Shown in pieces: positions 22,613-48,039 of a stretch of DNA of 64,000 bases; position 1 is the stretch's first letter; the number at the start of each line of letters is the position of its first letter. The DNA lies in NCBI GenBank assembly GCA_024137785.1, contig JAHRHZ010000217.1, positions 4,235,349 to 4,299,348 on the forward strand, written 5' to 3'. This stretch comes from Ginglymostoma cirratum (Eukaryota). The notes under the pieces were generated by a model. The model had not been told where the DNA came from. It saw only the letters and a program-made list of their open reading frames with translations, and ran no database searches. Position numbers and translations under genes: made by a program.

Positions 22613-22780
22613 CAAACAGAAAATACTAGATGTACTCAGCATGATTGGGTGACATCTGTGAAGGCAGAAAAGGAACGAATATTTCTTAACGTCGTTGTCT
22701 TCACAGATGCTGCTCAACCTGCTAAATATACCTAACTTTTTTTAAATTTCAGGTTGTTAGCATAAGCAGTATCTTGCCTT
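22613..22780. mobile_element. Old fold-back PLE-type element
   Basis: Residual inverted symmetry (CATCTGTGAAGGCA ... TGTCTTCACAGATG) with a PLE terminal-repeat-like tail. Confidence 0.45.
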
Positions 22781-24152: not shown

Positions 24153-26020
24153 TAAAAGGGGTTTCAAAGAGAATAGATCTTAGAAATCTTAGTAATAGAA
24201 CTATTATGGGTTTATCTCAAGTATAGAATACCCAAAAGTGTATAGTTACACTCTGGAATTTCTGGCGTAGGCAGGTATTTGCCATGTAAAAATGTTTTGA
24301 CATTGACATTGAAATATGAAACCACTTTTCTTATATTTTAATTTAGTGACATTCTTAACTGGCACAAGAAGTTTGCCTTTAGGACAAGGTTCTTGCAGAC
24401 ATTTTGTGACATGCAGTTTTCTTAAAGCCATAATGACAAATAATATTTATGGCAATTTGAAAGTGCATTGCAGAAAACAACATTTAAATTACATAAAATA
24501 AATCACCTGAGATTCAAGTTTTTTTTGGCTGCAATTGAACTGCATATACCAACAACAGACTAACAGCTGTGAAACGTGATGTGCCGTTGCTCAGATCAGT
24601 TATCTGTCACTAGCCATATACATCCATCGAGGTGCAGCTAGGTTGGTGATAAAGGAGCTCTGCTTCTTCCGGACGCTAGTTTTTCCTAATGTAAAGAAAA
24701 CTTAAGTGTTCCTTCCTCAGTAGTATTAAACACATTGCATTTAAACACTAAAATAAGTGCAATTTCAGTCAAAGCAGAAAATAAAAATATCATTTTTGCA
24801 CCAATGAGCATCTGAAGCCTCTTTGCATTGATCTGAAAACAGTACTGTAATGCTAGACTGTTATGGAATACACTTACAGTAATACCAAATGTCAAAATAG
24901 ATCAACTATGTGCTATATAATTTTGGAATGGAATTGAATAGCATTCCCTAATTTAGGGGACATCATAAATCATACAAGGAGATTTATTTGAATAAATTAT
25001 ATCAATCATAAGAATCCTTGAGTTTATGATTTATCATTTAATTCACTCACTGTAATTTAATATTTGGTGTAAATGAGCAATGTATAGCTCTTAATAACTT
25101 ATTTTCCCCTTTGTTTAGTTTGTTGTAAAATTTCATTACTTTAGACTGTGGAAAGATATAGCATTCTTTTACAACACCTATAAAAGTAAGGTTATTTGTA
25201 AAACAATACACAATGTAAAAAATGCAGCAATGTCTCTACATTTTTAAAGATGTTAAGAGAGAGATGAGTCATATGTATTCATAATAAATACCAGAGAAAG
25301 TAATGGTGAGTTTCAAGACAAACTCAATTGTGTACCATTAAGTATCAAGCTTAAGCATTGGCAAGTAGTTCACCAGACCATCTTGAAGGCTCAACCAGTT
25401 GTTTATTGTTCTGGTAACAAAGTGATAGACCAAAATTCGTGCAGCACAACTGCCAAGATTAAAAAGGAACAGGAAAGAAAGTTAGACAAATCAAGACAGT
25501 AGTTACATGATTCCAAACTTGAGTTTAAAGTATTGTAGGCTGAAAAGATACTGAGAGAGCAACATAGTTCACAAATTTCACAGAGTGTGGAAAAAAACGT
25601 GAAAGAAATGAATCCTGAGATCAATGCAAGGAGGATTGATTTAAGAAAATGACTAATGTCCAGAAAAGTAATGGCCAACTTCTTTGCTGTCAAGAGAATA
25701 TTTGTCAGAACTACTGGAAGAGCTTCATAAATAGCTTGGAAATTGTGGATAAACATGGGAACTTTTTAAAAGTTAAAGGTCATTGAAAGAGAAGACAAAC
25801 TATCTGACACTTGATAATTCCAAACATATGCAAAAAAAATCTTCCTTACTATTAGTATCAGGACTTTTGACTGTTTGGAAGGGAAAGCTGGTAGTACAAG
25901 GGACATGAAAATGTATCGAATGCAAAGTAACAGATATTCATGTGTTAATAAGTTTACTTTTCATCAAAATATGGCAACTATATGAAATACCCATATGAAA
26001 ACAACAACTAATCTGTGCTT

Positions 26021-26553
26021 GATAACAAGCATGGGGCTGGATGAACACAGCAGGTCAAGCAGCATCANNNNNNNNNNNNNNNNNNNNNNNNNNNNNNNNN
26101 NNNNNNNNNNNNNNNNNNNNNNNNNNNNNNNNNNNNNNNNNNNNNNNNNNNNNNNNNNNNNNNNNNNNNNNNNNNNNNNNNNNNNNNNNNNNNNNNNNNN
26201 NNNNNNNNNNNNNNNNNNNNNNNNNNNNNNNNNNNNNNNNNNNNNNNNNNNNNNNNNNNNNNNNNNNNNNNNNNNNNNNNNNNNNNNNNNNNNNNNNNNN
26301 NNNNNNNNNNNNNNNNNNNNNNNNNNNNNNNNNNNNNNNNNNNNNNNNNNNNNNNNNNNNNNNNNNNNNNNNNNNNNNNNNNNNNNNNNNNNNNNNNNNN
26401 NNNNNNNNNNNNNNNNNNNNNNNNNNNNNNNNNNNNNNNNNNNNNNNNNNNNNNNNNNNNNNNNNNNCTGTGATGCTGCTTGACCTGCTGTGTTCATCCA
26501 GCCCCATGCTTGTTATCTCGGATTCTCCAGCATCTGCAGTACCTTTTATCTCT
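26021..26553. mobile_element. Fold-back PLE-derived element spanning an assembly gap, 15-bp TSD
   Basis: The sequence left of the gap (26021-26067) is the exact reverse complement of the sequence right of it. CTAATCTGTGCTTGA occurs at 26008-26022 and 26552-26566. Confidence 0.85.
26068..26467. other. Assembly gap (400 N)
   Basis: Run of N. Confidence 1.
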
Positions 26554-26604
26554 AATCTGTGCTTGAATATTTTCTCAAGCTCTTGATTAAAATATTAGAT
26601 TTAA

Positions 26605-26790
26605 TTTGCTAGCTCAGTTAGCTAGCTAATGAGAGAGTGGTTGAGATTAAAGCCACCAACATGAATTCAGTCCCTGAACTGACAGTGATTGTTCATGGAG
26701 GCCTGCACCATCACCTGACTGTGTGCAATGGTTGCTCTCAGCCAATTATCTTTGTCTAATGGAGAAGTGCTTCTTATTTCTAACTTTATG
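26605..26790 (+). mobile_element. Degraded family-A SINE
   Basis: TAGCTCAGTTAG head and partial homology to 5751-5965. Confidence 0.4.
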
Positions 26791-29700
26791 GAAGATTGCC
26801 CTATAGTATTCCACTGGAATGTTGTGGCTTGTTGCAAAATGAGTACTGCTATTTTTCTTGCTGATGCAAAGAGTTCCTAAGCACACAACAATGTATAAGT
26901 AGCCATAGAATTGACAATGGTAGTTGTAACATTAATTTTTCAGTTTTACTGATGTGGACCTTTTTCTCCTGCATGATGTATGATCTAGGAATTACTGGCA
27001 ACATCAATATGTGAAAGTATTTGTTTGCAGTTTCTCGTAATAGTTCATAGATCTGTCAACCACATTGTAGATTATGTTGAATAATGTATATTTGGGAAAT
27101 GGTTACAATGCAGTCAACTAATTAAACAGCTCACATGAAGCTCAACCAGTCTAGAACCATTGCTTGAACCCTTCATTAGATTATTGCCTTGACATCACTC
27201 CACAATGTCATAAAATTTCATTTTGCTTAGTGGTTTTAATACAGTTTCAGTTCAAATTTCAGGCAGTTGCTATCAGTGCTGACAGCAATTTTATTCCTCT
27301 ATATTTTTGACACAGAATGGAGTTCTTGCTGGAGAATTGATGATTTTTGCATATTGATCATGAGGTGTATTTTAATTGATTGTGCATAAACTCAAAATTG
27401 TGTGTATTTCTATCATGTATTCATTTATCATTGGTTATTTATCCTTGATGGTTTGTAGTTGTGCCTGTTCTGTGGTTGTTTTAAATTTTATAAATCACAG
27501 GACCATTCACGTGGATAACAACATTTTCACAATTAAACTTATTTCCCCTCTTCATTGTGCTATTGTTTTCAAAGACATAGCTTTTTTTTGGTTTATTACC
27601 TATTCCTTTTATTCATTCACTGATGTATTTTTGTGTCTCCCAGGCCCTCTAAATCACAGCATGCTGATTGCTGCCTTCATTCCCTCCTTCTACCTGTCTT
27701 CTATTCACTCCCTCCCTTCAAACTGCTGTTATATCCTGCCCTTCTAAGTATTAAAATAAATCCTAACTAAAAGTAAGATTGATTCATTGCCAGACACCCG
27801 ACTGCATAAGCATTCCCCACACAACCCTTACAATCAGGACCCAAATATCTTATAGACTAAAGATCGACTGTGTTGTAGAATATCCTATATAAAACTACCT
27901 TTTTTTGTTTCCACAGCAGTCCTACTGTATTTTTGAATTTGAATTGCAATTTAACAATAAATCATGTCCTATGATCAAGTCTGTGCTATGGACTGATGTC
28001 CACTTAGAATTGGAAGCAAACTTGCTAACCTTTTAGTTCTTCCATTTGGGATTTGTAAATTTCAGAAACAAAGAGGGAGTGTGCATCTTATCCAACTGTA
28101 CTGAAATAGAGGCCAGTTCTCAAATGTCCAAAATAAATTTATATCTTCTTGATGGTAATACATTGTTTTTCAATTCCTTCACATTGCATTTCAAGAATTC
28201 CTGTTGATTTAAATGGAAAGAATACTAGAATTTATTCTAAGAGAAGCAAATTTACTTTTCCTCTAACAGATGATATTTGAACCATTAGTAGGGATTTGCA
28301 GTTTTGTTTTTGATATCATGATCCAAGAAAATTGTGCCACCTTGGCAATAGCACACTTTCTCACAAAAATCAACTACACTTCTACCTCCTACCTGATGCC
28401 AATCTGTGGGATGAGACTTTTTCTGCACGCTGTGAGCCAAAATTTGAGATTTGGCAATGAACTTGCAAGACTGGGAAATTCTGGCTGCAAGATACCACAG
28501 AATTTGTTCAAACGCACGCCCCTCCATTGACGGACTATGCATGAAATTAATACTACTGAGAACAGTTTACTTATCAGAACTAAAGGACCAATAATAATCC
28601 GCAATCGGCCCTCAATTCTGCTCAACTAACCAAGGGGAATCCTTAGAATTCTTGCCATAATGCTTTTGCAATGTTATAGTGGCAATGCCCACCACTACAC
28701 TTGCCAACCTCAGCTGGAAGATGCTGAAAAGAGACGTCTGAATATGAACACTGGTCTTGACAACACTCTTCCCCTTGTGCATTATTTTGATTCTGAACAC
28801 GCCAGTTGTAGAATGCAGCGAATGCACAAAGGAGGGAAGCTTCAAGCTTGGCACCACCAGGATCTGTAATCAGCAGCAAAATTTCTTCGATTCTAGTCAC
28901 AAAACGGAATCTGAATTGCGAAACGTCAGCGCGAGCATGAAGTTTTGGACAGTGTATTGTATGAATGCTCGCTATTTAAATCATCATGAAAAGTCAATCT
29001 AATTTATGCGCGGATACATCTGTGCGTCTTTCCACTGTCCCGCAGTTCACACATCTACACACACACACAAAAGTACGTGCTATTACTGAACTGGCAGATA
29101 GGAGGCATGAATACGCAGCAGATCGCGCCACAGTCAGAGACTTCACCGTGTGTCTGTCTCTGCCCCAGTGAGGACATGCTGATTCCAGCACTATCGTCTC
29201 CAATGAACGATTTCAACTAATTCTATAAAAGACAGTTGACAAGAACTCATTATGGGAGGGGTTTTGATATAGTCGGAGAATAAAGGTCAATTAGTAAATA
29301 TTCATTCAAAAAGAATGTCAGCTAAAGAGCCGTTGTAGGTACCTTTATGTACATACCCAGACGCAAAAAAGGAAGATTAATTCTCTGATCAAGATATTCA
29401 GACTCTATTTCCGACTGCGCCTATAAAAGGAACCACGAGGCACGTATCGATTAGGCGGGTACATTAATATCCTGATAGACCATAATCTACTTTTTATTGA
29501 TTAAACCATTCTTTTATAAACTGTCCGAGCTCTTTGCATCTCATATGGGAGACTGAAATAAAATGAGGTTTTCTGCGTCCACGTAGCCCTCATCTCTTTC
29601 CCCTCACTACATTAACACCCCCCCCCAAAAAAAGTCCCCACCTTCCCAAACTGTTACTGGACGCCGGATCAAATACGCACAAAAATCCGTCTCTATCCGC

Positions 29701-30949: not shown

Positions 30950-31250
30950 ACCCGGCGATGGTTGTTGGTCGGGGAGCGGGGGGGAGACGGAGGCGGAGGA
31001 GGGCATGGGGTGACCCCGCCCACTCCACCATCCATTGGGCGGCAGGCACCTGACGCACCGCCCGTCCCCAGCCAATCGTAGCCAGTGTCTGAGCGTCTCG
31101 GGCTGCCATTGGCTGGTGCCCAGAGGGCGCTATGCAAAAGCAGAGAGCGCTGAGGCCGGAGAGCTGCAATCTGTCAGGAGAGAGAGAGAGGGAGAGCGGG
31201 AATTGAACTACTGCAACCCGGGGCCGGGGGGGGTGGGGTGGACACGGAGG
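30950..31250 (+). promoter_or_regulatory. GC/CpG-rich proximal promoter of PCDH10 (TATA-less; CCAAT boxes, CRE half-site, GC boxes)
   Basis: GC-rich block 500-800 bp upstream of the ATG with ATTGG (~31034, ~31108), CCAAT (~31072), TGACG (31051), GGCGG/CCGCC boxes and GA-rich tracts. The TSS cannot be determined from sequence. Confidence 0.7.
31114..31132 (+). promoter_or_regulatory. Candidate CTCF site in PCDH10 promoter
   Basis: TGGTGCCCAGAGGGCGCTA compared with the CTCF core consensus TGGCCACCAGGGGGCGCTA; the 3' 13 nt match with R at the variable position. Confidence 0.5.
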
Positions 31251-31733
31251 TAGCCACAGAACAGAAACAGGGCTGAGGGAGAGGGAGAGAAACAGGGCAG
31301 AAAGGTTAACAGACAGAAAAAAAAGCTCAGTAAGATCCAGATTAGCGAGGCGAACTCCACTAAGTGTTTGATGAGAAACTCTGGACTCGATCGCCGTGTT
31401 TACGCCGAAGAGATGACTGGCCGCTATGTCAGAGGATTTGATGAGAAGCCAAACCCCCCGCGGGAATCTCTTCATCCAGGCCACTGCTGAATAGAGTGAG
31501 ATCCAGAGGAGCAGCTCAGTCACTAAAGGGAAGAGAAGGCAGAAGTTTGGCTCTCCCGGTGCGATGTGGCAGCTTGGCTTTTTGCGGACGGCGAGAAGAA
31601 AATGAGGGAGAAAAGTCAAAGCTGGACAGCGCGCTAGGTCAATCATTAAGAGGGTTTTTATATTCTCATTGAATCGCTGAGAGAAGAACCAAGAATTCAA
31701 GAAGTTGAAGAAGCGGCGGGACGGGCTGTGGAA

Positions 31734-34205
31734 ATGTTAGTGTGGTGTCTCCTGGTTTGTATCTGGTGGGACTCAGCCGTCTCTCAGATCCGCTACTCGG
31801 TGCCCGAGGAGCAGGAGCATGGCACCTTCGTGGGCAACATCGCCGAGGACTTGGGGCTGGACGTGACCAAGCTGGCGGCGCGCCGTTTCCAGACTGTAGC
31901 CAGCTCTCGGTCCCCTCACCTGGAGGTGAACCTGGAGAACGGGGTCCTGTTCGTTAACGAAAAGATCGACCGGGAGGAACTGTGCAAGCAGAGCCCGAGC
32001 TGCCTGCTACACCTCGAGGTCTTCCTGGAGAACCCGCTGGAGCTCTTCCGAGTCGAGATCGAGATCGTGGACATTAACGACAACCCCCCTGCCTTCCCGG
32101 AGGCCGACCTGACGGTGGAAATCTCCGAGAGCGCGTCGGCCGGTACCCGCTTACCGCTGGAGAGCGCTTTCGACCCGGACGTGGGCAGCAACTCGCTGCG
32201 GACCTACCAAATCACTCCGAACGGCTACTTCGACCTGGATGTGCAGACCCAAGGGGACGGTAACAAGTTCGCCGAGCTGGTGTTGGAGAAGCCGCTGGAC
32301 CGAGAGCAGCAGGCGCTGCACCGGTACGTGCTGACCGCAGTAGACGGCGGCTTGCCCCAGCGTACCGGCACCGCCCTGCTCACCGTCAGGGTGCTCGACT
32401 CCAATGATAACGTGCCGGTGTTTGGCCAGCCGGTGTACACCGTCACCCTGGAGGAGAACTCACCTCCCGGTACCCTGCTGCTGCAACTCAACGCCACCGA
32501 CCGGGACGAGGGTAAGAACGGAGAGGTGGTCTACTCGTTCAGCAGCCACGTCTCGGCCCGGGTCAAGGAGCTATTCAGCTTGGAGCCCCGTACCGGTTGG
32601 CTGGAGGTGAAGGGAGATGTAGATTACGAGGAGAGCAGTTTGCACCAGCTCTACGTGCAGGCCAAAGACCTGGGCCCGAACGCGGTACCGGCTCACTGCA
32701 AGGTGCTGGTGCGGGTCACCGACGTGAACGACAACGCTCCGGAGATCAGCTTCAGCACCGTGTCCGAGGCGGTGAGCGAAGCGGCGGCACCGGGTACCGT
32801 GGTGGCTCTGCTGAGCGTCACCGATCGAGACTCGGGAGACAACGGGCAGCTGCACTGTGAGATCCTGGGCCAGGTCCCCTTCCAGCTCAAGTCCTCCTTC
32901 AAGAACTACTACACAGTGGTGACGGACGGGCCGCTGGACCGGGAACAAGGAGACTCGTACACCATCACGGTGCTGGCCAGGGACCACGGCTCGCCTCCGC
33001 TGGCCTCCAGCAAGTCCATCAGGGTACAAGTAGGGGATGAGAACGACAATGCGCCGCGGTTCTCCGAGGCTTCCTACGACGTGTATGTGAGTGAGAATAA
33101 CGTGCCCGGGGCGTACATCTACGCGGTGACCGCCACCGACCCGGACCTGGGCCAGAACGCCTACATCTCCTACTCCATATTGGAGTGTGACATCCAGGGC
33201 ATGTCGATCTTCACCTACGTCTCCATCAACTCGGAGAACGGCTACCTCTACGCGCTACGCTCCTTTGACTACGAGCAGCTGAAGGAGTTCCGCTTCACCG
33301 TGCAAGCCCAGGACTCGGGAAGCCCAGCCCTGGGCTCTAACGCCACCGTTAACATCCTCATCGTCGACCAGAACGACAACGCGCCTTCTATCGTCTCTCC
33401 GGTAGCCCGGAACGGTACCTCCCGGGAGCTGGTGCCCCGCTCGGCCGAGCCCGGTTACCTGGTGGTCCGCCTGGTGGCCGTAGACGCGGACGACGGCGAG
33501 AACGCCCGCCTCACTTTCTACATCGCCCACGGGAACGAGCTGGGCCTCTTTCGGATGGACTGGAGGAGCGGCGAGCTGAAGACCGCCAGGCCCTTCCCCG
33601 CCGGTAACACCGCCCCTTACGAGCTCCTGATCGAGGTGAGAGACCACGGGCAGCCGCCACTCTCCGCCACCGCCACCGTCTTGGTGCTGGCGGTCGACAG
33701 CGCGGTGGAGCGGCCCGGGGAGAGGGGTAACCGAGCTGGGAGTCCCAAGGAGAACGCGCTGGACCTGACCCTCATTCTGATCATCGCCTTGGGCTCGGTC
33801 TCCTTCGTCTTCCTCCTGGCCATGATCATGTTGGCAGTCCGCTGCCAGAAGGAGAAAAAGCTGAGCCTGTTCAGTTGTTTGGCAGGGGAGGGTTGTGCTT
33901 GCTGCCGACAGGCCAGGAACCGTAAGAAGAAGCTCAGCAAGTCAGACATCATGCTGGTGCAGACCAGCAACGCCAACGCCGCGCAGGTCTCGGTGGAGGA
34001 AGGTGGCTTCGGACACCACAGCCAGAACTACTGCTACCAGGTCTGCCTGACCCCAGAGTCGGCCAAGACCGACCTCATGTTCCTGAAGCCCTGCAGCCCG
34101 TCCAGGAGCACGGACGCTGAGCACAACCCCTGTGGTGCCATCATCACTGGTTACACGGACCAACAGCCCGACATCATTTCCAATGGGAGCATATTATCCA
34201 ACGAG
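31734..34205 (+). CDS. PCDH10: Protocadherin-10, coding exon 1 (824 codons): signal peptide, EC1-EC6, transmembrane helix, proximal cytoplasmic tail
   Basis: The ORF track starts at GTG 31728; the first ATG is at 31734 (MLVWCLLVCIWWDSAVSQIRYSVPEEQEHGTFVGNIAEDLGL). Cadherin Ca-binding motifs DRE, DINDNPP, DSNDNVP, DVNDNAP, DENDNAP, DQNDNAP; EC1 C-X5-C; TM LTLILIIALGSVSFVFLLAMIMLAV. The tail QNYCYQVCLTPESAKTDLMFLKPCSPSRSTD...DQQPDIISNGSILSNE matches PCDH10. Donor GAG|GTAAGT at 34205/34206, phase 0. Confidence 0.97.
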
Positions 34206-34452
34206 GTAAGTGGTTACAACCTGACTCATATCTCCAACTTTCTCCAACTGCGCACCTTTATTTAGATTCCAAACATAACCCCCCCCCCACCTTTTGCTTC
34301 CTCTACTTTACAAGTTCATCTCTGATAAACTCACTATCTTCCCGTTGAAAATCCTCCGTTTGCCCCTCCTCGTAGAGCTGTCTTCACCTGAAGTGCGGTC
34401 AAACCACACCAGTTGATTCCTGTGGTTTGGATCCAACATTCTGCGACTTGTA

Positions 34453-34646
34453 TCAGAGATAGCAGGAACTGCAGATGCTGAAGAATGTGAGATGACAAGG
34501 TGTAGAGCTGGATGAACACAGCAGGCCAAGCAGCATCAGAGGAGCAGGAAGACTGACCTAGGCCGGAAACGTCAGCCTTCCTGCTCCTCTGATGCTGCTT
34601 GGCCTGCTGTGTTCATCCAGCTCTACAACTTGTCATCTCACATTCT
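34453..34646. mobile_element. Fold-back PLE-derived element in PCDH10 intron 1 (76-bp arms, 13-nt loop)
   Basis: 34482-34557 and 34571-34646 are inverted repeats (74/76 complementary). The direct repeat ACATTCTGCGACTTGTA lies at 34436-34452 and 34640-34656. Confidence 0.9.
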
Positions 34647-35222
34647 GCGACTTGTAGCCCTGTTTGAAGAGGGTAAAGAAAGTCCTCGGGTCTCCTGGCA
34701 TGAAGGGAAAGCGGTCAGACACTTCGTCCTGTGACCAGAAGGGGTTTGACAGGCACGGACTCCCGTAGTTATTCTTCATTTGGCCGCTTCAGGCCTGACA
34801 GTAGCTCACACACCCTGCGCCAAGGTCACATTGTTCAGACTTGCAGCGACGGTTGGAGTTTGTGAGACTTCTGCATCACACTGTGTCAACCGAAGAGGGT
34901 AATTCTCAGAACCAGGACATCCACTATCAACATTCCCCGCTAAAACCAGTCGTAAAGAGTGTCCCAACATGTGCCCTCCAATTAAAATCCTACCTTGTAC
35001 GTTTTAAAATGTCGTCCAGCCTTGAGCCCATACCAGATGCAACTCCGAAGTATTCTGTAATTGTACAGTCATTAAGAGGTCCGGGTGTCATATTAGTAAC
35101 AGTAATTAAATTTCCTCATCACGATGATAGCTTCGACTGAAACTACATGCGTCGGCCGGATTCTTGTGTTAATGCCTGCTTAATAAGTAACGATTATTGA
35201 CTTAGTGGTTCCTGCTTTACAG

Positions 35223-35281
35223 ACAAAACATCAGCGGACCGAACTCAGCTTTCTAGTGGACAGACCCCGTCGAGTTAACAG
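35223..35281 (+). CDS. PCDH10: PCDH10 coding exon 2 (59 bp)
   Basis: Acceptor ctttacAG| followed by ACA AAA CAT CAG..., translating TKHQRTELSFLVDRPRRVN(S), close to human TKHQRAELSYLVDRPRRVNS. Donor AG|GTGGGT. Confidence 0.95.
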
Positions 35282-35376
35282 GTGGGTAGCTACTTGATCA
35301 GGATCATCATGCAGTTTTCACGGTTGCTCCGTTTTGCATTCTGGCGCTAACACCAGCGCTTCTGTTCACCTTCCAG

Positions 35377-35483
35377 TTCGGCTTTCCAGGAGGCGGATAT
35401 AGTGAGTTCGAAGGATAGTGGCCACGGGGACAGCGAACAGGGGGACAGTGATCACGATGCCACGAACCGAGCTCAGAACTCTG
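35377..35483 (+). CDS. PCDH10: PCDH10 coding exon 3 (107 bp), CM1 motif
   Basis: Acceptor ccttccAG|; translates (S)SAFQEADIVSSKDSGHGDSEQGDSDHDATNRAQNS(G); donor G|GTGAGT. Phases (2 in, 1 out) fit exons 2 and 4. Confidence 0.95.
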
Positions 35484-37654
35484 GTGAGTGTGCTTAGGGG
35501 CGTCTCGAAAGTGTTCCCCGGTCTCTGCAGTGGGGTTGATGGGGGAAGAGACACATATATTTTGCGCAGTGTAACAGAGAAGAGAACAAGCATCCCCTTC
35601 CCCCCTCCAGGCTCGGAGTAGGGGGCTGCATTATTGAATTCGCTCTTCCTTGACTGTGTTGGCGTTCGCAGTAAACCACCCAACTGCTCGTATGTATGAA
35701 TGAATGGACATGTCAGCACAGCATGCTGATGTGTGAATATTGAATTAAGAATAACGTGTAGTTAACTCAGCAGCTCAAATTTCACCCCTGGTGTGTACTT
35801 CATGCGTATTACGGTTGAGTCACGGACTTTGAAAGAATTGTGTGATGTTCTGTTGAGCGAAATGGAGGAAGTGTGTTATTTACTGCTCATCACTTTGCGC
35901 CGAATCCTGTTCCTTTGTAATATACATGTACTGAGTACAAGCTGTCCTTGAAGAAACTATTCTCAGACTAATTACCCCTTTCCCTTTTGGTTTCCTGGGG
36001 TTGCTTTTATCAAACCCGACTACTACTGCTCATTATGGAAAACACGTTTGGTGCTAACGGCTCAATGGCCTCTTTATTTTTTTCTGCCTTTAATGAATGT
36101 GCAATCTGAAACGAGTCCTCCAAGACTGGCATTCGTCTCCATCATTCCTGGTTTGTTGGTGAACGTGATGGAATTTGGAAAGAAGCGATAGTGGCAGGGT
36201 CAGGGAGTTGAGAAGGACACAAAGCAGTGAGTGGGCTTTTGCCAGATGTCCCCAGTCAGCTCTCACAGGGGGAGGAGATGGCGGGGAGGATTAACTAATT
36301 CGCTGGAGCTTCATAAAATTCTCAAACCCCTGATTTGCACATTGCCCAAACCCGGCGACTGAATCTGAAAGGGTCGTTTTATTCGTGGTTAGCATGAATG
36401 ATCCTTGCCGCTCTCTTTCAAAATGTCGGGTTATTAAATTCACCCATAACACAGAAGATGGCAGTAATGCAAAACTTATCAAGCTCCGCAGAGCCTTTTT
36501 ACATTACATTTCCGAAACGGAAAATTATTGGTCCGGATAACAAAAACTCCCAAATACACAGAATGACTTTTTTTGAGCCTGTCTGAAATAGCGGCCAAAC
36601 CAATAACGGATAAGGAAAAGTACAAAACCGGTTCACTTGTACAGTGAACCACAAGTCTGTGTTTACCATTGACTGAGCAATCTTGAAACATTGCCAGTGA
36701 AACCGTTGAATATCAAATAATTCTGGAAATCAGATCAACATTGGTTTTAACCGGATTAAGGGACTAGAGCACTGTTTTATCTTAGCGTGAGCAGTTTAGG
36801 ATCGTGCATATAAAGCTGATAATTGTTCTAATTCTGCTTTTTGAAATGGTTTATCTGTGTGAATGTATGAACACGTTATATGCTGTGCAATGTTAAACAA
36901 GTTGAGCAGATTTACAACATTAGGCAGGCAACCAGTATAAATGGCTCTGGAAATTTTATTGTACCAGTGTAAGCGGTACTAGATAGCTAGTTTGACTGCA
37001 ACAGCTTGGTATCCTTTTTTTCTGCCAGCCATTGCCCACTGTGTTTTCCTGAACATTATGATAATCTGTTACTTTGGCACAAAAGCTCCACCTAATTTAA
37101 CGCAATGTGTGCAAAATAATGCAATCCCTCCTGTTGGTGCTAGTGTGTTTGTCTGGATTAAAATAAATACTTCAACAAAGATCTCTAACAACCCATATCC
37201 CTTAATTACGCTAATTCCTAGTATTGTAATCTGAGATCACCTCACAGAAACACAGAAGATGACAACAGCTACCTAAGTCACTTAGGTGTGTTTGTTTCTG
37301 TTGGAGTTGGTGCCAGCCCTTAACTGAAGGACAACAGCTGTTAGAATTTGAATTATGGTGTGGAAAATGCCTAACAGAAGGAATGCCTAAACAAAGATGC
37401 TGGATTTAGGATGGATTAGAATTATACCAAAGCTTTAAGATGAAAGATGCAATAGAGGAGAATGGTGATGTGGCTTGTGTCCTTATGGAAGCATATGGGG
37501 TAAAGAGGTGAGAATGGTTTAAAGAGAGAATTAAAGGGAATTGGGACCTTCCTAGCTGAAGGCTCTGGCACCAATGCTGGACAGAGGAAGGGGTGGAAGG
37601 GGCAGATTAATGAAAAAAAGGTGCCATATAGGTCCTGGTTGCATATAGGCAAAG

Positions 37655-37860
37655 ACATCATTGTCTTAGCAGACCATAGAGTTGCTTGCTCATTAGAGAG
37701 AGATAACAGGTGGTAGTTTAACCTGAGGGTCACCATGCCTCAGGCAAGGGGAGGGAGTGGGAAGGAGAGACCTTCATTGTAATCTCAGCCAGTGTGGGAA
37801 TTGAACCCACATTGTTTGCATTACAGCACATTGCAAACCAGTATCAAGCCAACTGACTAT
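37655..37860 (-). mobile_element. tRNA-derived SINE (family A)
   Basis: TTTAACCTGAGGGTCACCATGCCTCAGGC...GGGAATTGAACCCAC is antisense to 5751-5965. Confidence 0.7.
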
Positions 37861-38589
37861 TGCAAGTCTATCTTCACAAAGCAGGGATAAATACCAAACC
37901 AGAAAATAGTTTGGGGGAATATTGGAAACCAATCAAGTCTGCTTAGTAAAATATAATGGGAGAGTAAGTCAAATGAATTTGGATGTTCTTCCCTTAGCTC
38001 TCAATAAATATGGATCTCCATTTAAATCTGCACTACTTAGATGCCCTACAATAAAACATCATGAATAGCTCATGTAAGAAAGAAACATGCACAAAGTTGT
38101 ATCCTCTGGTGCTGGGCTGTCTTATATTGCATGGAACAATTGCCATATAAGGAAACAGTACTAATAACATGTGACAAAATGGAAAATCCCGAACATCTAA
38201 AATATTAACCTGCTCTTTATGGAAAGAAAGAGCACCTAGATGATCTAAAGCAAGCCCGTGACCAGTCAATTGTCTAATGTGTCTTCACATCTTTGGGTTG
38301 ATAGACTATATCCTTGTTAAGAAAGAAGGTACTTGAATTACTCAAGCTGCTCAGTTTCAAGAATTCAGGAAATTCACACTTGGTTCTCTTACACTGTTGA
38401 TCCATAGACTTCAACAATATTGGTGGGGAGAGTGGTAAAATATTGGAGAAAGCGCCTACCTCTTTTGTATGAATGGAAAGTTACATTTTGGAAATCCTGA
38501 ATGCATATCTTCTACCAACCCAAGAGCTCAGATTGTGCTTGATCTTATAGGAAAATTAGCATCAAAGTTCAATGGCTATTGGGGAAGGC

Positions 38590-39300
38590 AAATTGAATGC
38601 TAGCCTTTATTTCAAATGAGTATAAAAGTAGGGAAGTGTTACTTAAACTATAAAAGGGAATATTCAGACCACAGCTGGAATACTGTGAACAGTCTGGGGA
38701 TCCTTATCTAAGGAAAGATTTACCAGCATTGGAGGAAGTTCAGTGAAAGTTCACGAGGCTGATATCACATGTATCCCGGAGTGTCTCCAGAAACATCACA
38801 TGCAGTATGAGACATCGCAGTACAGAGGATATGACCTTGTACATGATATGAAGAGACTGTTGTGTGAGGAGAAGTTGAGTGGTTGGGCCTGTGTCATTGG
38901 AATATCAAAGAATGAGAGGCAACATTATTAAAATATACAAGATTCTGCAGGAATGTAGCAGAGTAGATGCAGAGAATTTGTTTCCCTTTGTGGGATAGTC
39001 TAGCATCAGAGAGGAATAACTCAGAATAAATGGGGTTTATATTTAAAACAGAGATGAAGAGAAATTTATTTTCTGAGAGCGTAGTGTATCTGTGGAATTC
39101 TTTACCCCAGAGGACTATTGAAGTTGCGTCATCAAGTATGTTCAAGGCTGAGATAGATAACTTTCTAATCAGCAAAGGAATCAACAATCATGAGGAAAAA
39201 CTGGAAAGTGGAATTGAAGATGATCAGATCAGCCATGATCTCATTAATGGAGCAGAGTGATGGGCTGAATGGTCTACTTCTGCTTCTACATCTTATGGAC
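38590..39300 (+). mobile_element. CR1-clade LINE 3' fragment
   Basis: FKTEMKRNLFSESVVYLWNSLPQR and a CR1 3' UTR. Confidence 0.85.
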
Positions 39301-42300
39301 TGAAAGGGTTGTTGGCTGGCAGTAGAATTAAGCTCAAAGGTAATTTTGTGAAACATAGGAGATCCAATTCATATTCCAGTTCAAACCTGAGAAAATATAT
39401 TGCTAGCATTTTGTTGGTCATATGTATGAAAATGCTGGTGTTGGACATCCCCCATACTTTACCTGTTTTGAAATGCAGGAATGTGCAGTGTTAAAGGCAG
39501 CATTGTTTCAATGTAGTTGGAATATAATACCAGTATACTATTGTAGACATCAAATAGCTCATGATTATGTTTTCTGTGTATCTCATGCATTGATGAGCCA
39601 TTGAATGACTTTTAAGGGTGTTAAAGTAGAAGGTATATTTGATACTTGTATTTCGAATGCCACTTACAATGTTTTGCTTTCCTCAGTGTTGTCTTAGTTA
39701 TGATATTAACTACATGAAATACAGGACATCATATGTAGTAGGAAACATGATGGAAGAGAAAAACAGAAGAGGCTCTGTCATTTGTGAGGTGGGAAGGATG
39801 GAAAATAGGGAAAACGTTGAGAAAACTTTACCCCTCCAGACGTGTCCCATCTTTGCTCTTTTTTCTTGGTTGTCTCGAACGTGTTTGGTTTTAAACAGAT
39901 TCAAAAGTTCAATATGGAAGACATTGGCTGTATTTTCCAAAGCATTTCAATCGAATGAGGATTAACTCAAGAAGAAAATGTGCGTAGATTTGAAACGAAA
40001 GGCGAAAGGATTGCAAACTTAAATATTACAAAACAACAGGATGTTAGTCTCGAGGGATAAACAGGTTAATTATATCAGCTGCGATCTGAAAAATAAAGAA
40101 GGAAAGATTTGTCAGTTTACAAGTTTCGCTTCATTAGATACGAAGAGCAAGACTTGTTTTGATATAAAGAAACGTGTCCATTAAACTCCGAAGGTGAAAT
40201 TTGCAGATAATTTAGGGAAATAGTCGGGGATGTCTATTAAATGCGTGTATTTATCGCAATTTGAAAATACACAAAGCCCGCTTTACAACCGGGAACAAGA
40301 ATGGGATCGTGTAAATAAGCCACGGAACCGACAGCCGAACGTGCTCTCCATTCAAAGCTGTATATAGGCATCCTCACAAGTTATATCAACTTCTGTCTTG
40401 GATGAACAGGGCAGTACTCAAAGACCTTCGCCCCGCTGCGATTGGATTTCAGAACAAAAGAAGTGTTTGTTGATTTTAGCAAACAGTGGGCGTTTGTCAG
40501 CCATGCAAACGGTAGAGAAAAGGAGCGGGATCGGGGGAAACAAAGCTACACCGCGGCGAGCCAATAGCAGTAGGCTTCTGCAACGTAAATATTAGGCAAC
40601 TTGGAAGAATTTTAGGACATGTCCTCCTGCTAGGGTGGTTGCACTGTACGTATCAGGCCGCCGTTGAAATGCGGTGTACTGTTTGACTAACTCAGTTACA
40701 AGGTCAGAATCAAACGGCATGTGATCCCCCAATCGCAGCCGCGAAGACCCTACACGTGCTGGTTGTAGTTGGCATTTTTTTAAAACGACACGGTGCTGGC
40801 GATCCTGTTCCCAGCTCACGTCCGCAGTATGCAACAGCTCAGTGATCAGTAATTTGCTTTCAGATTTCTGCATAGTAATTACTGATGTGGGACTAGGATG
40901 GGAACCTCGTATTTGCATTGCAGTAGCTTCTTTAATTTAACCTGTATAGACATAAAAGCAATTTTGAAGAGAGATGAGTGCATGATAAACGTGGATCGCC
41001 TCCCTCTCCTCGCTGCCGTGCTGAACTGTCTACTCCCATTTGTAGCTCTTCAAGTTCTCTGACTGACGCGGCGCCCCTCGGATGAATAGAGTCGTGACGT
41101 TGCGAGCTACTTGAGGATTAGAGTTGCATTGCTAACGCCAGCTTTCATACTGAATACTGCACTGTGCGGCCACGGAAGCAGCTCCTCCCTCAGTGTGCAG
41201 CTCCAGTGGTGCCAGGCCATGTTGACTAAATAAACTGTTTGTTTCCTAAACGGGTTACAGTGGTACAATGTCTCAAATTCGATTTAAGTGCTTTGCTGTC
41301 GATATGTTTTGTTTGTGTATCTCATGGTGGCACCTGTTTCCTTGTTCCCTGTCTAACTGTTGAGCCACTTGTCCGACCAGCCCGCAAGTCAGATTGAAGG
41401 GGAAAGGTGACATGTAAAAGCTGAGAGTTGCTGCTTCGTTAATTATACCTGACGCGACTTCATTCCACGGTTTTATTGGGTTTTTTTGTAACATGGGTTA
41501 CAGCTCCATTTTCCTGGCAAGAGTTTGGTTACCAATAAAGCTCATGTCAATCGAGCCTCTCCTTGTCAGTGCAAAACCCACTGGACTGCCAACTGTGTGT
41601 AAGAAAGCATTTTCGTGTTTACTTAGACAAGCGTTGCCAATAGAACATGCAGTAACAAGCGCACGTCAATAGCATCTGCCTCCGTGTCAAACCGAAGCGT
41701 GGAGTGTTTCTCCATACAAATTAAATCAATTAACCACACCGCTCCTCAGATTGAAAAATACTTAAAATGGCCGTGTTCTGATTGCATTTGTAATAGCCGG
41801 AATTGGTAATAATAGTGATCAGCTTTTGTCCTGCCACTCAAGTTTGATATTTTGATCAGTTGACTGAAGGAAAGGACTTTGAGTGGATGGAATGCCTAAA
41901 GTGAAAAGTAAATCATACAGTGATGTCAAGTATTTGCCTCAATAGCCCAAAGAAGGAGTAAACTCTAATCACTTGTGATTTATTTTTTCCATAAACCACC
42001 TAATCCCATTGTGTGCCCCATGTGCACTACATGTTGACTGATTTTATGAGTTTATTTAAGGTTTTTTTCAGAACCATATGATGACTTTCTTTATTCTGTG
42101 GGGATCACCTGTCACAGAGAGCTGTTGCCTGTCCGATGATACAGAATTAAACTCTAATGCATTCGGGCAAGATAGAGTTATTTTGATGTAATTGCAGGAG
42201 TTGAAAGCCAGACCAGCAAACAGCTGTGAGCAAGATGTTTTCTAATAGTTTTCAAGCAGTGGATCGTATGTAAGATATTCAATAAGAAATCAGTGCATGG

Positions 42301-45300
42301 AGGTTGGTACATAAAATTCTACTCTCAGCATTATTTGCCACATTATAAACTTCTAGTTTCATAATTTGTTTGATCCCTATTATTATCAATAGTCATTATG
42401 AATGTCTGATATGAAGATAATTGGAAAGTGTTGGTTAACTTCCTTAAGTATATGGTATTTCATACATTGAAATGTTTTCTTAATTTTAATATATGAAACC
42501 ACTGTGATTTCAATTGATTTTAAAAGATCCATGTTTTGTTGCTGGAGAATAGATTTATATGTCTATTTATTTCTCATTAATGCACTCTAGCTACTTGTTT
42601 GCTTGAATACGCATCCCTTAAATAAAAACAGGCCTCTAATAGTTTTAATAGCCAGGGGAGTTCAGTAATAATTAAATAAGGTTTTGTAGAATTATTCCCA
42701 TGCCAACACTGCAACTGCCATTTAACCTCTTATGTCCTCTTTGTTTTGTTTCTGTTTTTACTCTCTTTGATCATTGTTTCCTTGTTCGACTGCCTTAATT
42801 TTTCTTTTTTTTGAAGTGGAGGCACTTGGTTACATATGGTAGGCTTAGTGAACAAATATGCTTTGAATACAAGCAAGCTGTTCTCGTGGCACTGTACAGT
42901 GAGCCCTGTCTGCTTGCTGAGACAAATTGTGCCACAATCTCATTCATTATTTCTAAATTGATAATATCATACTAGTCCATTCCATGTAGCTAAATAAATG
43001 TTCTAATCGCCCAATCCATCTTGTTGAGCTAATGATGCCAGACTGGATCTCACTTTGAATTTGATTGGTATACTGATTGCATTACAAAAAAAGCTTTTCT
43101 TATTAAAGATATGAATGCCCAATACAGGATAAGAAAATGGGAGTACTTTTGACAATCATAATTTTGATTGCTTTTTAAGTTGAATTTTGTCAAACTGTAA
43201 TTTATAAATCATGTTGATTTGCAGGTGAATAAATTATACGTATGCGTATGAGGTAGTAGAAGATATCAGTCTTAGTTATAGAAAGAATGATGCAATGGAT
43301 AAATCAGTTGTAATAGCAATAGTGACGATATACATTTTCCTTCAAGCCCTGGATTTATTCGAGTTTTGATTGTGCATTGCTCAAATGTTACTGTTTCACT
43401 AATCATGAATCCACTATATGCTGTGATTTTAAGCTTTATTCTTGGATCAGGCGGGATTGTCTGTACCTTACACTGCCAGAAATCAAAAAGAAATATTATT
43501 TATGGGATAAGTCCTGCTACTTTCTTATTGACTTACTAGGTATCAGACATGGAATTCATAAGGATTCATACATTTAGCAATAGATTGCCACATGTAAAGT
43601 ATTCTACATTTTTTTTACCATTAAAAAGACATTTACGTACTGCCCACTTCTATTGAGCTAAAAACACAGGAGGATGTGAAGAGTGGCTGAATACAGGATT
43701 AGAGGGAATGCTTTTCCTCTGCAGATGTGTGTGATTTTTAAGAGGACAACTGCCCCTCAAAGCAAATACAAATTAGCCAACATTATGGCATTGCTAACAT
43801 GACCTGCAAATTACTTCTGAATAGGTTATCTCAGGTAACTATTTCTCCAAAAGCAGAATTATTCTCAAAAAGCTTTCTAGAGTTGAATCATTATTAATGA
43901 GTCAGTGATTTTTTAAACACATAGAGGTACCATCATAACTGGATTGTTGTGGGTTTGGCATTACTGGTCGCTGATTAACACAAAAAGATCTGTTTAATGT
44001 ACTCTGGGTGATGAATATTGTGTAAAACACTTGCCACCCCATGATTATATTTTATGAAATATGGTACCTCACCAAGCTATATTGTTAATCTTTCAACCCC
44101 TTCCTTGAAGCATATACAACAGCTATTTACCAAACCAGTTTCCCTTCTGTCACACAGATTTTTTACGCATACCTCTCTCCTTGATAAACAACTTATAAGT
44201 CACATCAAAAGTGTTAAATTTATTTTGAGAGGACACAGACCAACAACAAAAGCTCTTAGATTTGTGCAGAAATGCCTGCTGTCATCTCTTGTCTTTTTTG
44301 CCTTGTACTCATCAGCCATATGGTGGTGAGGCTCAGTTTTCATGTCTTAATTTCAATGTCAATGCTTTTTCTCAGTATCATCACAGTTTTTTTGGTGACA
44401 TGACCATGATATCTGAAACAATCTTGTAAGAGGAGTAAGCATTTTACCTGTTTCTGTTGGCATAGACTTTTTTTTATTATGCTTGATAAATCTCTTCAGT
44501 GGAAGTCCCAGAGGAGAGAAGAGGCAGGTTGTAAATAGAGAGCTAGGTTTAATTACATGGCTCTAGGCACTTCAGTAGCATGAGCACTGGTAGGATGGCG
44601 ACAGGGCTATTTGAGCTGGTATGAAATTATATTACATATATCTGTTCATTTCCTATGCTTGTACTAACTCGCAATTTGACAGATAAAGTGGATCGATTTT
44701 ATGAACACCCGAGATGTGAGCACTTTTGTTTTAGGGCAGACCATTTTTAGGTAATTAAATCTTCTTAGGAAATTTCATTTCAGAAAATGGAGACTCCCTG
44801 TCAATTTAATTTATTTGTAGGAGGTGGGGTTTGAATACTTCTGAATATTGAGTGCTGGTAAGCAATGGGAAGATTGCTTTCGAGGAGATACTTACTGCCT
44901 TCACATTTTTAAACCTCAAATATCTTCATTGTTATACTCATTTCACCTTCTGCTAGTGGTTAAAGTGCTTCAGGGCATTTGGCAAGCTGCATTTCCTTCA
45001 GACTTTAACTTTTGCCACTAATGTAAAAGGTAGAGCAGTGTATTCAAAATGGCAGAAAATAAATGAAAATGGATTTTTGTTTTGCTTCTGTACTTGTTTT
45101 TTATTGTTTTATAAATGGATAGTTCACATTTAATAACATGAACCCAGCAAGAATGGTATCTCAATGCAGGAAAAAATTCTTAATTGGTCTCTCGATTCTA
45201 CACCTCTCTTTGTGTAAAATTATTTTCCTACAGTTGAATAGCATCAGCGTATCACTACATATTTACATTAGAACTGCTCCTCTTTCCAAAAGAAACTGTA

Positions 45301-46660
45301 ATTCCTCTTGTAAGTTTGAACTAACAATGCCATCAGCAGGGGCCTTTTAAATCTAAATATAAAAACAGTTAGAAATGTGAAAAAAGTTATTGGATCAAAT
45401 AATAAAGCTCATTTATAATCTTTTCAACTGTCGTTTTGAAAGTGCTTTGACAGTGAACTTCAGGACTGACATTTTCTTTTGCATGTCAGTGTTCCATTGT
45501 CATGCACGTTAAAGTTTGACCTTAATGGACATTGATTAGTGAATTCCACTGTGATTTTGACTTGTAAAGTGCTCCCAGTAATAAGGTGCCCCCGGTTATT
45601 TAAAATGTTCTTTCCATTTTTTTCCTGTCTTCTCCCCTTGCAGGCCGTTCACCGAGGTGCATCCTCCTCCAGCTGGGGGAGAGCAGGACGGTCCAGGATT
45701 CAGACTTCTCTACGACTGCCGTCAATGCAGCTCTGTGAGCGGCTGGCAGGAGGTGCGATTTGAGCAGGGTGCGTTGGACAATGACACTTCTCTCTCTTTC
45801 CCCTCCCTCCATAATCCCTCCCCGGGAATGGAACTTCTTGCTTTCACATAACACTTCTTCTAGGGGTCTTGTCGAGAACTGAGGAAATTCAACCAACTGA
45901 AACATCTGATTTTGTCTGGTAGGGAGCCCTGGGACTCAGAATGTATGTATTTCTGGCTGGGAATGAAGGATCAAACTTCTTGAGCTGCTCACTTGTCCTT
46001 GGTCTTTTTAAAGGGCAACTCACCCTAATTAAAATGAAAGATTGCTTACCCTTTAGAGTGAAGCCCTCCTAAGACCAACATTTATAGGGGAAGAAACTTT
46101 CAAAAGGATTAACTAACCTCAGATTGCAAAATAACTTCTGACGTGGCAATCCTATTGTCAGCACCTAAAATGAAGCTTTAAAAGAACATTGTCACCTTAT
46201 ACTTTGCTTTGTAACATAGTAACATCAAACAATATTCTCAGTCAGGTGGTGAATTAACTTGCCAAATAATTGCATTTTTCTTCTTTTTTTAATCTTTATG
46301 GTGATTACTTGTTAAATATCTTATCACTGTCCATTGATTGACCTATGCTATTGTGTTGTATAGACCTCTGTTGTCGTCTGATACCTAATCATATTGGAGA
46401 GTGCTTGTGTGAGTTTCTGTTGTAAGCACTGGGAAGCTATCAAAGCATGGGGGATCACTGCAGTTGAGCTTGATCATATCCTCACCTAAGGTCCAAGCAA
46501 ACCTTACAATAATATTAGAGTAGTAAGAAAATAGAGGCAAACTGGCAATTTATTTTAGTGCAGCTTCCTGAGGCCAGCTGCGACACTTTGAAACTGTGGC
46601 TCAGTTTTGCATCAGACAGCAAATTTCGCAACTTTGCAAATAGGGAATCTTTATTTTTGT

Positions 46661-46828
46661 CAACAAACAGGAGGCTGGAAGAACACAGCAAGCCAGGCAG
46701 CATCTGGAGGAAAGTAGAAATTCGGGTATTACCCTTCTTCAGAACAGTTGCTGCCTGACTTGCTGTGTTCTTCCAGCCTCCTGTTTTCTACCTTGGATTC
46801 CAAAATCTGCAGTGTTTTTGTCTCTAAC
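46661..46828. mobile_element. Fold-back element of a second PLE-derived subfamily, 12-bp TSD
   Basis: Arms 46665-46702 and 46749-46786 (37/38). The loop has minus-strand CTGAAGAAGGGTAATACCCGAA. CTTTATTTTTGT occurs at 46649-46660 and 46829-46840. Confidence 0.85.
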
Positions 46829-48039
46829 CTTTATTTTTGTAATTTTGTCTTCATCCAATAAGCTACGTTTGCACTTGGGAATTGAATACAAAGTTGGGTA
46901 CTCTGAAATTAAGGTCAGTATAGTTAGATGCAAACTAAAAGTTCCTCTGTTGTGTACTAGCAGTAGCTTAAGTGCTGACACTGTTCAGATTGTACATCTC
47001 GTAAGATATGCCATTTTGCTAGAAGTTTCCGAGCAAGCGTTCCAGTGTTTAGCAAGATTTGTTGTTTGAAATCTTCAACGGCAACAAAAACAAATCTTGA
47101 TTTATTAACATGAAAAAAACTTTGATAAAATAAAATAGAAATTGCTATTAGTTCCAACATGGATAATGAACAGTGTTAACTGCATTGAAAACACATCATA
47201 GGAATGAAATAACTCCTATTTTGGTATCGTTCAAAATGTGGGGCAATTTTTTTGAGTATTAAAATAAAATATCAGGGCCATGCAATCTCTGTAACTAGAT
47301 GCTGTTAACCATATTATTATATAATGTTTTCAAAGGGTGTTGCAGACATCCAATAGCAGGTAAAATGTGATCATCAAACAAAGAATACATTGAAATCCAT
47401 CTTCAAAACACTTCCTAGAATCCATAGCCTTATGCTCAAATCTGCAATACTTAAAAAGAAGTGAAAATGAAAATGAAAGTCAATGAATATATTGCCATTC
47501 ATATTTAACTAATAAAATCATCATTAACTAAGTGAAAATGTTATATTCTAGTGTTGCTCCTTCATGGAATGTAGGGGTCATATATTCTATCATGTGTATT
47601 CAATTGCTTTTTGATGGTGGGTTTATGCAATTTCTGCAATAATTTATCAAATGGTAAAAACTATCTATTTTTAAGTATAGACTCAAGTTACAACTTGAGA
47701 GCAAAGTCCACTTATTTGGAAGGTTACTGTATGCTCAAATTTCTTCCCTTTACACGTCTGTTGGATTGGATTTGTGATAAACGAAAACGCTTGATTAAAG
47801 ACATCTAAAGTAAAGATTTTGAAAGAGATGGTAAAAATTCACTTGAATTTATAACATATCAATGATCCTATTCTGTGCACAGTTCCTTTCCTATTTAAAA
47901 TTTTTATGTTTGTGTTTATAATAGAAGCTGACTCTATAATCTTTTTTATGATGTATTACAAAGTAGTTGCAGCCCAGAAGATCTGTCAGTGATTATGCTC
48001 CACACAAACATCTTCCCACCCTTCTTAATTTAACCCCAT

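Follow-up and report, generated by a model that had tools for sequence, protein, structure and literature searches.

Palindromic inserts in a Ginglymostoma cirratum contig as very short Penelope-like element copies in a known insertion layout

Short, non-coding, hairpin-forming inserts flanked by target-site duplications (TSDs) resemble MITEs, and several of them occur in a 64,000-nucleotide stretch of the shark Ginglymostoma cirratum (contig JAHRHZ010000217.1, positions 4,235,349 to 4,299,348; the window). Do they constitute an element class of their own, or are they made by a retroelement? A preliminary description of this DNA had read insertions near 22.6k, 26k, 34.5k and 46.7k as inverted pairs of a Penelope-like element (PLE) 3' end between direct repeats of 12-17 bp, and had suggested that ORF-less palindromes of ~170-200 bp would form a distinct class. 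We find that the description is partly confirmed. The palindromes are indeed PLE products, very short copies in a known PLE layout and not a new element class.

The insert at 34.5k spans 187 bp and is a complete head-to-head pair of the PLE end:
34436-34452, no strand: left TSD copy, 17 bp
34453-34557, minus strand: antisense arm, including a 36-nt tail (34453-34488)
34558-34639, plus strand: tail-less sense arm, starting within stem II of a putative hammerhead, its 5' end 13 nt longer
34640-34656, no strand: right TSD copy, an exact 17-bp repeat

Its arms overlap by 69 nt and, compared as 34482-34557 against 34571-34646, are 97% complementary over 76 nt, with a score matched by 0/2000 shuffles. 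The TSD is exact over 17 bp (34436-52 / 34640-56), and the first 7 nt of its right copy match the start of the tail (6/7 against the family letters). Run contigs were compared with the window across 34300-47000. In one contig from a related shark (run X14, record 17) the stretch 34436-34639 is missing, no letters stand in its place, and a single TSD copy is kept; this was the empty-site check that had been proposed, and it identifies the direct repeats as true TSDs. Exact repeats of at least 12 nt were found in 5/19797 random flank pairs, and of at least 15 nt in 0/19797. Sequencing runs with small word shares were left out as evidence of habitat or range.

The insert at 46.7k (~163 bp) is also a complete head-to-head pair:
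46646-46662, no strand: left TSD copy, 12 nt exact at 46649-60, or 15/17
46663-46744, minus strand: antisense arm, no tail, extending to the 5' side of the putative hammerhead motif
46745-46825, plus strand: shorter sense arm with tail
46826-46842, no strand: right TSD copy

The TSD is thus 12 bp exact, or 15/17, and the arms overlap by 42 nt (42 nt at 95% complementarity; score matched by 0/2000 shuffles), the antisense arm being of a more divergent subfamily. The left junction is present in contigs of runs X14, X10 and X15; the insertion is common to the X14 relative, so no empty site is found there.

At 26k, the TSD and arm stubs are as described, and the junction and interior fall within an assembly gap:
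26008-26022, no strand: left TSD copy, 15 bp, an exact repeat of 26552-26566, its last 2 nt overlapping the element end
26021-26067, minus strand: tail-less antisense PLE end, interrupted by the gap
26068-26467, no strand: assembly gap of 400 N, covering interior and junction
26468-26553, plus strand: sense PLE end with a 34-nt tail (26520-26553), placed by alignments
26552-26566, no strand: right TSD copy

The visible stubs are identical at 47/47 positions on either side of the gap. The whole spans ~530 bp with the gap included, and an ORF-less palindrome of 170-200 bp was not demonstrated here.

The fourth candidate is weak:
22613-22781, no strand: old, decayed candidate of the same inverted layout (antisense ~22613-22685; sense plus tail ~22690-22781)

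Its arm-to-arm similarity is weak (reached by 18/2000 and 1/500 shuffles under two scorings), it has no TSD (best exact repeat in the flanks, 6 nt), and profiles built without its arms matched them only at E 0.015-0.31. The first profile matches to these arms were discarded as circular, and the leave-out profiles were used instead.

A longer, ORF-bearing copy points to the parent:
57030-58085, plus strand: 1-kb 5'-truncated PLE copy with the same layout, TSD 57030-40 / 58075-85 (10/11); antisense tail-end stub of 8 nt at 57043-50; endonuclease remnant at 57091-57672

Its 3' end, at 58074, is tail-less. The stub lies 2 nt from the TSD and represents a start at the tail end without a mirror copy of the long arm, although the same 8-mer turns up by chance at two other places in the window, 30283 and a site on the minus strand. 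Over 194 aa, the endonuclease remnant (57091-57672) shares 87% identity with P0001. P0001 scores 23.2 bits against GIY-YIG (cut-off 22.6) and 22.7 bits against RVT_1, below the cut-off of 29.6; the window copy has no Pfam match at E 0.001, has an altered GIY motif and is without RT. A linker C-X4-C-X2-C was found in P0001 and P0003; the window copy and P0002 carry another residue in place of its last C. A CX2-5CxxC linker preceding the endonuclease marks the Neptune and Nematis clades (PMC8557442). The parent is an EN+ PLE, putatively of Neptune type, with a linker common to Neptune and Nematis.

The putative hammerhead (~57980-58008) consists of core boxes and a 4-bp stem recognised by eye, with no Rfam match and a fold no better than shuffles. 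Rfam returned 0 window matches at the gathering score, and on 57900-59100 only two chance snoRNA matches (E ~6); folds of monomer RNAs (three hammerhead regions and one arm) were likewise no better than shuffles. Hammerhead cleavage was rejected as the origin of the arm ends: the left arm at 34.5k extends 3 nt past the expected cleavage site on its upstream side, and in the remaining copies the motif is present in full. Pattern scans of viral_contigs and metagenome_contigs gave 0 loci in each.

The same end also occurs as solo units:
13929-14052, minus strand: ~100 nt, uninverted and tail-less, with an exact TSD of 15 bp (13929-43 / 14038-52)
15219-15317, minus strand: no tail, no clear TSD
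58867-58996, plus strand: with tail, no TSD found
21136-21274, minus strand: older, with tail, aligned, E 4.4e-8 by a profile not containing it
14496-14617, minus strand: older, with tail, its likeness to the 21k copy reached by 0/500 shuffles

TSD searches at 15.2k, 22.6k, 58.9k, 14.5k and 21.1k gave nothing convincing. A tandem-repeat search gave 11 rows, all of them outside the short units, and every unit found is solo or inverted.

Several rules of layout emerge when the inverted insertions are compared. A tail of 34-36 nt sits on exactly one arm (34 nt at 26k, 36 nt at 34.5k, one-sided also at 46.7k), so that the elements are asymmetric, a feature absent from the preliminary description. 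One tail end only was counted in 5/5 inverted insertions (26k, 34.5k, 46.7k, 57k and 22.6k, with 22.6k weak and 57k represented by an 8-nt stub), an outcome expected 1 time in 32 if ends chose independently at even odds. The tail-less arm extends further 5' in all four readable cases, and TSD lengths vary from 11 to 17 bp. At readable junctions, the target 3' end runs into element-antisense sequence, from the tail end on one side and from the pLTR end on the other.

The arms of one insertion were claimed to resemble each other more than those of other insertions, and this held at 26k (0/43 differences, measured across the gap, against at least 7/43) and at 46.7k (4/43 against at least 8/43). 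At 34.5k the excess is modest (2/69 against 4-6/69-70), and on the 43-nt core alone the arms, 1/43 apart, resemble the 14k and 15k copies (1-2/43) about as much as they resemble each other. The 26k, 34.5k and 46.7k inserts are of different subfamilies (7-15 differences in 43 nt), and within-insertion likeness is partly subfamily likeness. Variants described as private to 26k are not confined to that locus, since the motif recurs in a run X11 contig (a 30-letter loose end, matched by eye). At 34.5k both variant letters are rare in the family, and the right-hand partner of one is target DNA outside the element.

We consider it fairly probable that a single insertion of an EN+ (Neptune-type) PLE accounts for each palindrome, which would be built anew on landing by dual priming and head-to-head joining. 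The GIY-YIG endonuclease would make a staggered cut of 11-17 nt. Reverse transcription would be primed from both target 3' ends, probably on one RNA, with one end starting at an internal site (the pLTR end) and the other at a site ~35 nt downstream (the tail end). Both cDNAs would then halt early and be joined head to head, and fill-in would give the TSD. From the observed layout, the TSDs, the one empty site, the one-sided tail and the differing junctions, we infer dual priming, a single RNA and end joining; five insertions were compared, two of them weak. In vitro, an anole PLE protein cuts both strands and extends them, and a dimer is predicted (PMC11167929). The outer ends of the shark inserts match that element's pair of RT start sites, which supports dual priming; twin priming is one of the routes proposed in the preliminary description. 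The element of that work is of the Poseidon clade, inverted products go unreported in the text available, and there the steps after priming are given as unvalidated (PMC11167929).

Counter-evidence comes from G34487 in the tail-bearing arm at 34.5k, which equals the target base where the family letter is C (91-98% of summed depth in three runs). Pure RNA-templated synthesis does not yield this base; a rare variant of the template, copying from DNA or a subsequent repair templated by the hairpin would be required. A tentative refinement, which we hold to be possible, is a two-primer reaction of fixed order on one RNA, in which the tail-less cDNA leads, the tail-primed one trails, target microhomology guides priming and the inverted arm is copied from DNA at least in part, which would let it include bases of the target. 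On this view the solo units of ~100 nt would arise by run-off at a fixed 5' end of the RNA, immediately upstream of the putative hammerhead.

Rather unlikely, in our estimate, is fold-back copying, by which the first (tail-less) cDNA would, through folding back or a template switch, serve as its own template and take in a few primer (target) bases; the second target end would copy the tail only, and the two cDNAs would anneal by microhomology. It accounts for the target-like G34487 without a later event and for the unpaired spacer in the tail-less arm, and self-priming has been argued from junction palindromes (PMC3846280). However, no pairing capable of priming is visible at the exact 34.5k junction, a possible 7-nt pairing at 46.7k sits 5 nt off the junction (by eye), the layout is found at 57k in a copy that lacks a mirror arm, and G34487 is a single case.

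We regard as very unlikely a distinct non-autonomous palindromic element, MITE-like or based on a hairpin RNA, that moves as a unit. Sizes are alike (163-187 bp), and many listed junction contigs have depths above 100 against 6-16 in single-copy flank, which could mean shared junctions; yet the termini are asymmetric, with the tail outside the palindrome on one side, TSDs range from 11 to 17 bp, the subfamilies differ (7-15 in 43 nt) and the parent is a retroelement. Moreover, the two readable junctions and the 12 head-to-head joints from other loci among those listed (15 of 844, picked for high depth) all differ from one another, unlike an amplified MITE family with fixed TSD and junction. 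Contig depth was rejected as a measure of copy number, to which it is not equivalent. Self-priming on an antisense transcript, devised for rotifer PLEs to explain head-to-head orientation (PMC3846280), is very improbable too, for by itself it leaves unexplained why both outer ends coincide with the pair of sites at which RT starts on the sense RNA. An assembly artefact, which the identical 26k arms flanking a 400-N gap might suggest, is scarcely credible given arms that differ at 34.5k and 46.7k with a one-sided tail and TSD, the exact empty site at 34.5k and the 46.7k left junction in three runs.

Dual priming with end joining has a parallel in L1 twin priming, where a single RNA is primed by both strands of the target and an inversion arises between TSDs. 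There the inverted segment adjoins the direct one with no overlap and the segments are adjacent parts of the RNA, whereas the shark inserts hold the same 45-70 nt twice.

The layout itself is already published for PLE insertions, which, together with the 57k copy, argues against the distinct class that had been suggested. In Adineta vaga Pen2/Pen2a (PMC3846280) and in PMC8557442 (Fig. 2), a 5'-truncated inverted copy lies head to head, with a 30-40-nt tail at one end, a TSD and assembly gaps at such loci. The shark inserts share the truncated inverted copy, one-sided tail, TSD and gaps with the rotifer ones, but neither shark arm need exceed 110 nt or contain an ORF, and the shark TSDs measure 11-17 bp where those described for the rotifer are 8-10 bp long. 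With Anolis carolinensis PAc Poseidon (PMC11167929) they share two RT start sites bounding the tail; PAc also has an upstream hammerhead motif, for which the shark has a putative counterpart, and the cutting and extension of both strands seen in vitro for PAc is proposed for the shark. PAc is of another clade, and its start site is reported to have no homology to the DNA that is cleaved; the shark has a 6/7 match at one 34.5k junction and 2 nt at the 26k junctions. For Schistosoma, PMC4209133 mentions in a single sentence minimal hammerheads paired on opposite strands at distances of 100-700 bp; these too are short inverted PLE ends, interpreted as truncated PLEs, and the passage gives no TSD, tail or junction analysis. 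Non-LTR retrozymes derive from PLE pLTRs and are short, non-coding and hammerhead-bearing; they include monomers and are reported from one chondrichthyan (bioRxiv 10.64898/2026.07.22.740005). They are head-to-tail tandems by definition, whereas the shark inserts are head-to-head or solo. A literature search covering mainly open-access papers returned no palindromic non-autonomous PLE class and no shark report.

The origin of tandem and inverted PLE insertions has been called undefined (PMC8557442). In the short, abundant shark inserts, less than 200 bp holds the centre together with the junction on either side, and they offer two rules that can be counted genome-wide, one tail per insertion and a tail-less arm that extends further, plus the target-base test. 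MITE finders could misclassify such inserts, and longer versions may disrupt assemblies, as the 26k gap suggests. If the fixed-order two-primer reading is true, the shark genome would be a natural dataset big enough to decide how PLE inversions and tails form.

The short insertions of Penelope-like element (PLE) ends, built of two inverted copies (arms) between direct repeats, are real, generate target-site duplications (TSDs) and conform to a known PLE layout. A search of the window for inverted pairs of at least 25 nt, no more than 2 kb apart, returned three pairs, all at the three loci named in a preliminary description of the sequence.

Inverted insertions and their flanking repeats
34453-34639: 187-bp insert (34.5k), exact 17-bp flanking repeats
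About 46663-46825: insert (46.7k), flanking repeats 12 bp exact or 15/17 bp
26k: insert with exact 15-bp flanking repeats

Random flank pairs shared 12 nt in 5 of 19797 cases and 15 nt in 0 of 19797, so such TSD-like repeats are rare by chance. At 26k, 400 N separate the arms, and the 248-nt arms returned by the inverted-pair search are mostly N. An older insertion had also been proposed near 22613 (22.6k); its arm-to-arm similarity is faint, being equalled by 18/2000 and 1/500 shuffles, and no TSD was found in the candidate flanks. Inverted pLTRs with a tail on one inverted repeat and a TSD are described in the available portions of PMC3846280 and PMC8557442, and the accessible part of a curation guide (PMC8969392) records the same pattern. 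Excerpts of other work report minimal hammerhead pairs on opposite strands, 100-700 bp apart (PMC4209133), and retrozymes as PLE derivatives (bioRxiv 10.64898/2026.07.22.740005). The available text of PMC6155905 and PMC6431247 adds nothing specific, and a literature search for shark mini-palindromes found no paper.

Contigs from four sequencing runs (of 22 listed) were aligned to window positions 34300-47000. Run X14, from a related shark (organism A), differs by ~4% from the window. One of its contigs, of 7146 nt, covers 34300-34435 and resumes at 34640 with zero letters between, and thus lacks the 34.5k insert and exactly one TSD copy; an empty orthologous site with a single TSD copy, proposed earlier as a check, was thereby found. 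Run X10 (organism A, separate study) agrees, in that a contig begins at 34640 with 140 letters left over; rows at 34337-34381 match the depth of that contig, and the left-hand piece is not among the contigs listed. At the left junction of 46.7k, contigs of X14, X10 and X15 continue into the left arm, so this insert is common to them, and no empty site was seen. Elsewhere, an X14 contig (record 21) links 39606 directly to 40280, the intervening ~670 bp (39607-40279) being missing in the relative.

The inserts are asymmetric. A 34-36-nt extension beyond the pLTR end (the tail) occurs on a single arm, at the right in 26k and 46.7k and at the left in 34.5k, and the opposite arm stops at the pLTR end. 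In inserts with two readable 5' ends, the arm lacking the tail is longer at its 5' side by 13 nt (34.5k) and ~40 nt (46.7k), and weakly so at 22.6k. Overall, a single tail is present in 5/5 inverted insertions and a longer tail-less arm in 4/4; these counts are small, and two of the cases are weak.

The arms had been described as more alike within an insertion than between insertions. Over a 43-nt core they differ at 0 (26k), 1 (34.5k), 4 (46.7k) and, at 22.6k, 18/44 positions; differences from the most similar other copy number 7, 1, 8 and 20, respectively. The claim therefore holds for 26k and 46.7k and fails for the 34.5k core; across a 69-nt stretch, two sites separate the 34.5k arms, versus 4-6 against three young copies, a modest difference. 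The 26k variant, said to be private, is also carried by an X11 contig and is therefore not so. X11 yielded only 17 aligned records, several of them 151 nt long with a depth of 2, yet one PLE contig at depth 76 with the 26k-type variant; this signal may be low-level shark DNA carry-over or a distant relative. As for the 34.5k variants, G34494 is indeed common to both arms and rare, with A instead in 95-97% of family depth (X14, X10, X15). G34487, in the tail-bearing arm, is replaced by C in 91-98% of family depth in the same runs, and is not shared in that sense: its partner, 34641, lies inside the TSD, and identical letters occur beyond the element in the left-hand TSD. The arm with the tail thus has a base that resembles the target. 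At the outer end of the hairpin, 7 nt separate the two rare letters; as a single case, they fit a single short tract of conversion, copying from a DNA template during insertion, or an uncommon template.

Both target 3' ends run on into antisense element sequence, at opposite ends of the tail. The anole PLE protein cuts and extends both strands, with reverse transcription starting at two sites that flank the tail, and is predicted to form a dimer (PMC11167929, in the part available). By analogy, both target 3' ends would prime reverse transcription at the tail's two bounding sites, and the two cDNAs would then be united by end joining. We infer that such dual priming and end joining probably explains the TSD, the presence of a tail on one side only and the variation at the centre. 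A single RNA template, with the second cDNA trailing, is favoured by the tail and arm-length counts. Fold-back copying, in which the first cDNA copies itself together with a few target bases, explains G34487 better than dual priming does, and is overall a doubtful route to the palindrome. The remaining readings rank below these two. Of 15 joints listed among 844, 12 connect the 34.5k left arm to its right arm and 3 concern other places; the 12 comprise 12 distinct position pairs, 0 matching the window's own, with short sides of only 20-26 letters. Since the 34.5k insert is missing from organism A, joints in that shark derive from other loci. Many listed joints exceed depth 100, the sole remaining datum for amplified units, although depth is not readable as copy number, and a palindrome class moving as a unit is improbable. 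Antisense self-priming is slightly more improbable, and an assembly artefact the most improbable of all.

A 1-kb copy (57030-58085) has a TSD matching at 10/11 positions, with an 8-nt antisense tail-end match 2 nt inside the left TSD, followed by ~10 unassigned bases and a tail-less sense copy with an endonuclease remnant. The 8-mer occurs at five sites window-wide, three of them tail ends (34.5k, 57k, 58.9k) and two by chance. Five solo units of 100-140 nt lie at 13.9k, 14.5k, 15.2k, 21.1k and 58.9k, with a clear TSD only at 13.9k. Among seven copies with a whole hammerhead-like motif, six begin no more than a few bases from its 5' side, the seventh being the 1-kb copy.

Copies of several ages with a 5' start just before the hammerhead-like motif
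13929-14052
14496-14617
15219-15317
21136-21274
46663-46744
58867-58996

Upstream sequence at 14k and 58.9k showed no likeness to the 3' UTR of the 1-kb copy (reached by 292/500 and 161/500 shuffles), and that at 15k showed a marginal one (8/500). Loose ends upstream of 34558 agree for ~15 letters before consensus is lost (three runs; 338, 290 and 120 contigs). This fixed 5' boundary suggests run-off at an RNA 5' end, stalling of the reverse transcriptase in the C-rich tract that lies upstream, or short non-autonomous RNAs.

Over 194 aa, the remnant at 57091-57672 shares 87% identity with P0001, a reverse transcriptase and GIY-YIG protein with a C-X4-C-X2-C linker. In the available text of PMC8557442, CX2-5CxxC-type linkers distinguish the Neptune and Nematis clades, and the parent, judged from P0001, would bear this mark. 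By source label, the proteins closest to the element's ORF remnant are from whale shark and zebra shark (5 matches among 1144 candidates, longer proteins only), which identifies the window as shark DNA.

Other features of the window
31650-34265, plus strand: large first exon of a protocadherin gene, with cadherin domains
About 54957-55391: later exon-like open frame of the protocadherin gene
19512-20051, minus strand: open frame, by eye resembling a CR1/L2-type LINE reverse transcriptase remnant
3040-3234, minus strand: very old endonuclease remnant (tblastn E 0.001)
2480-2558, minus strand: faint pLTR-like match (E 0.018), ~500 bp downstream of that remnant
6989-7426: degenerate minisatellite (periods 24-25, 48-49, 98)
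37700-37810, 38600-38700 and 39200-39300: further high-copy repeats, by summed contig depth

The endonuclease remnant and pLTR-like match are possibly a single ancient PLE copy. The 34.5k and 46.7k inserts would be intronic in the protocadherin gene. To the known PLE layout, the shark inserts make modest additions: an empty site, the pattern of one tail with a longer opposite arm, and a target-like base.
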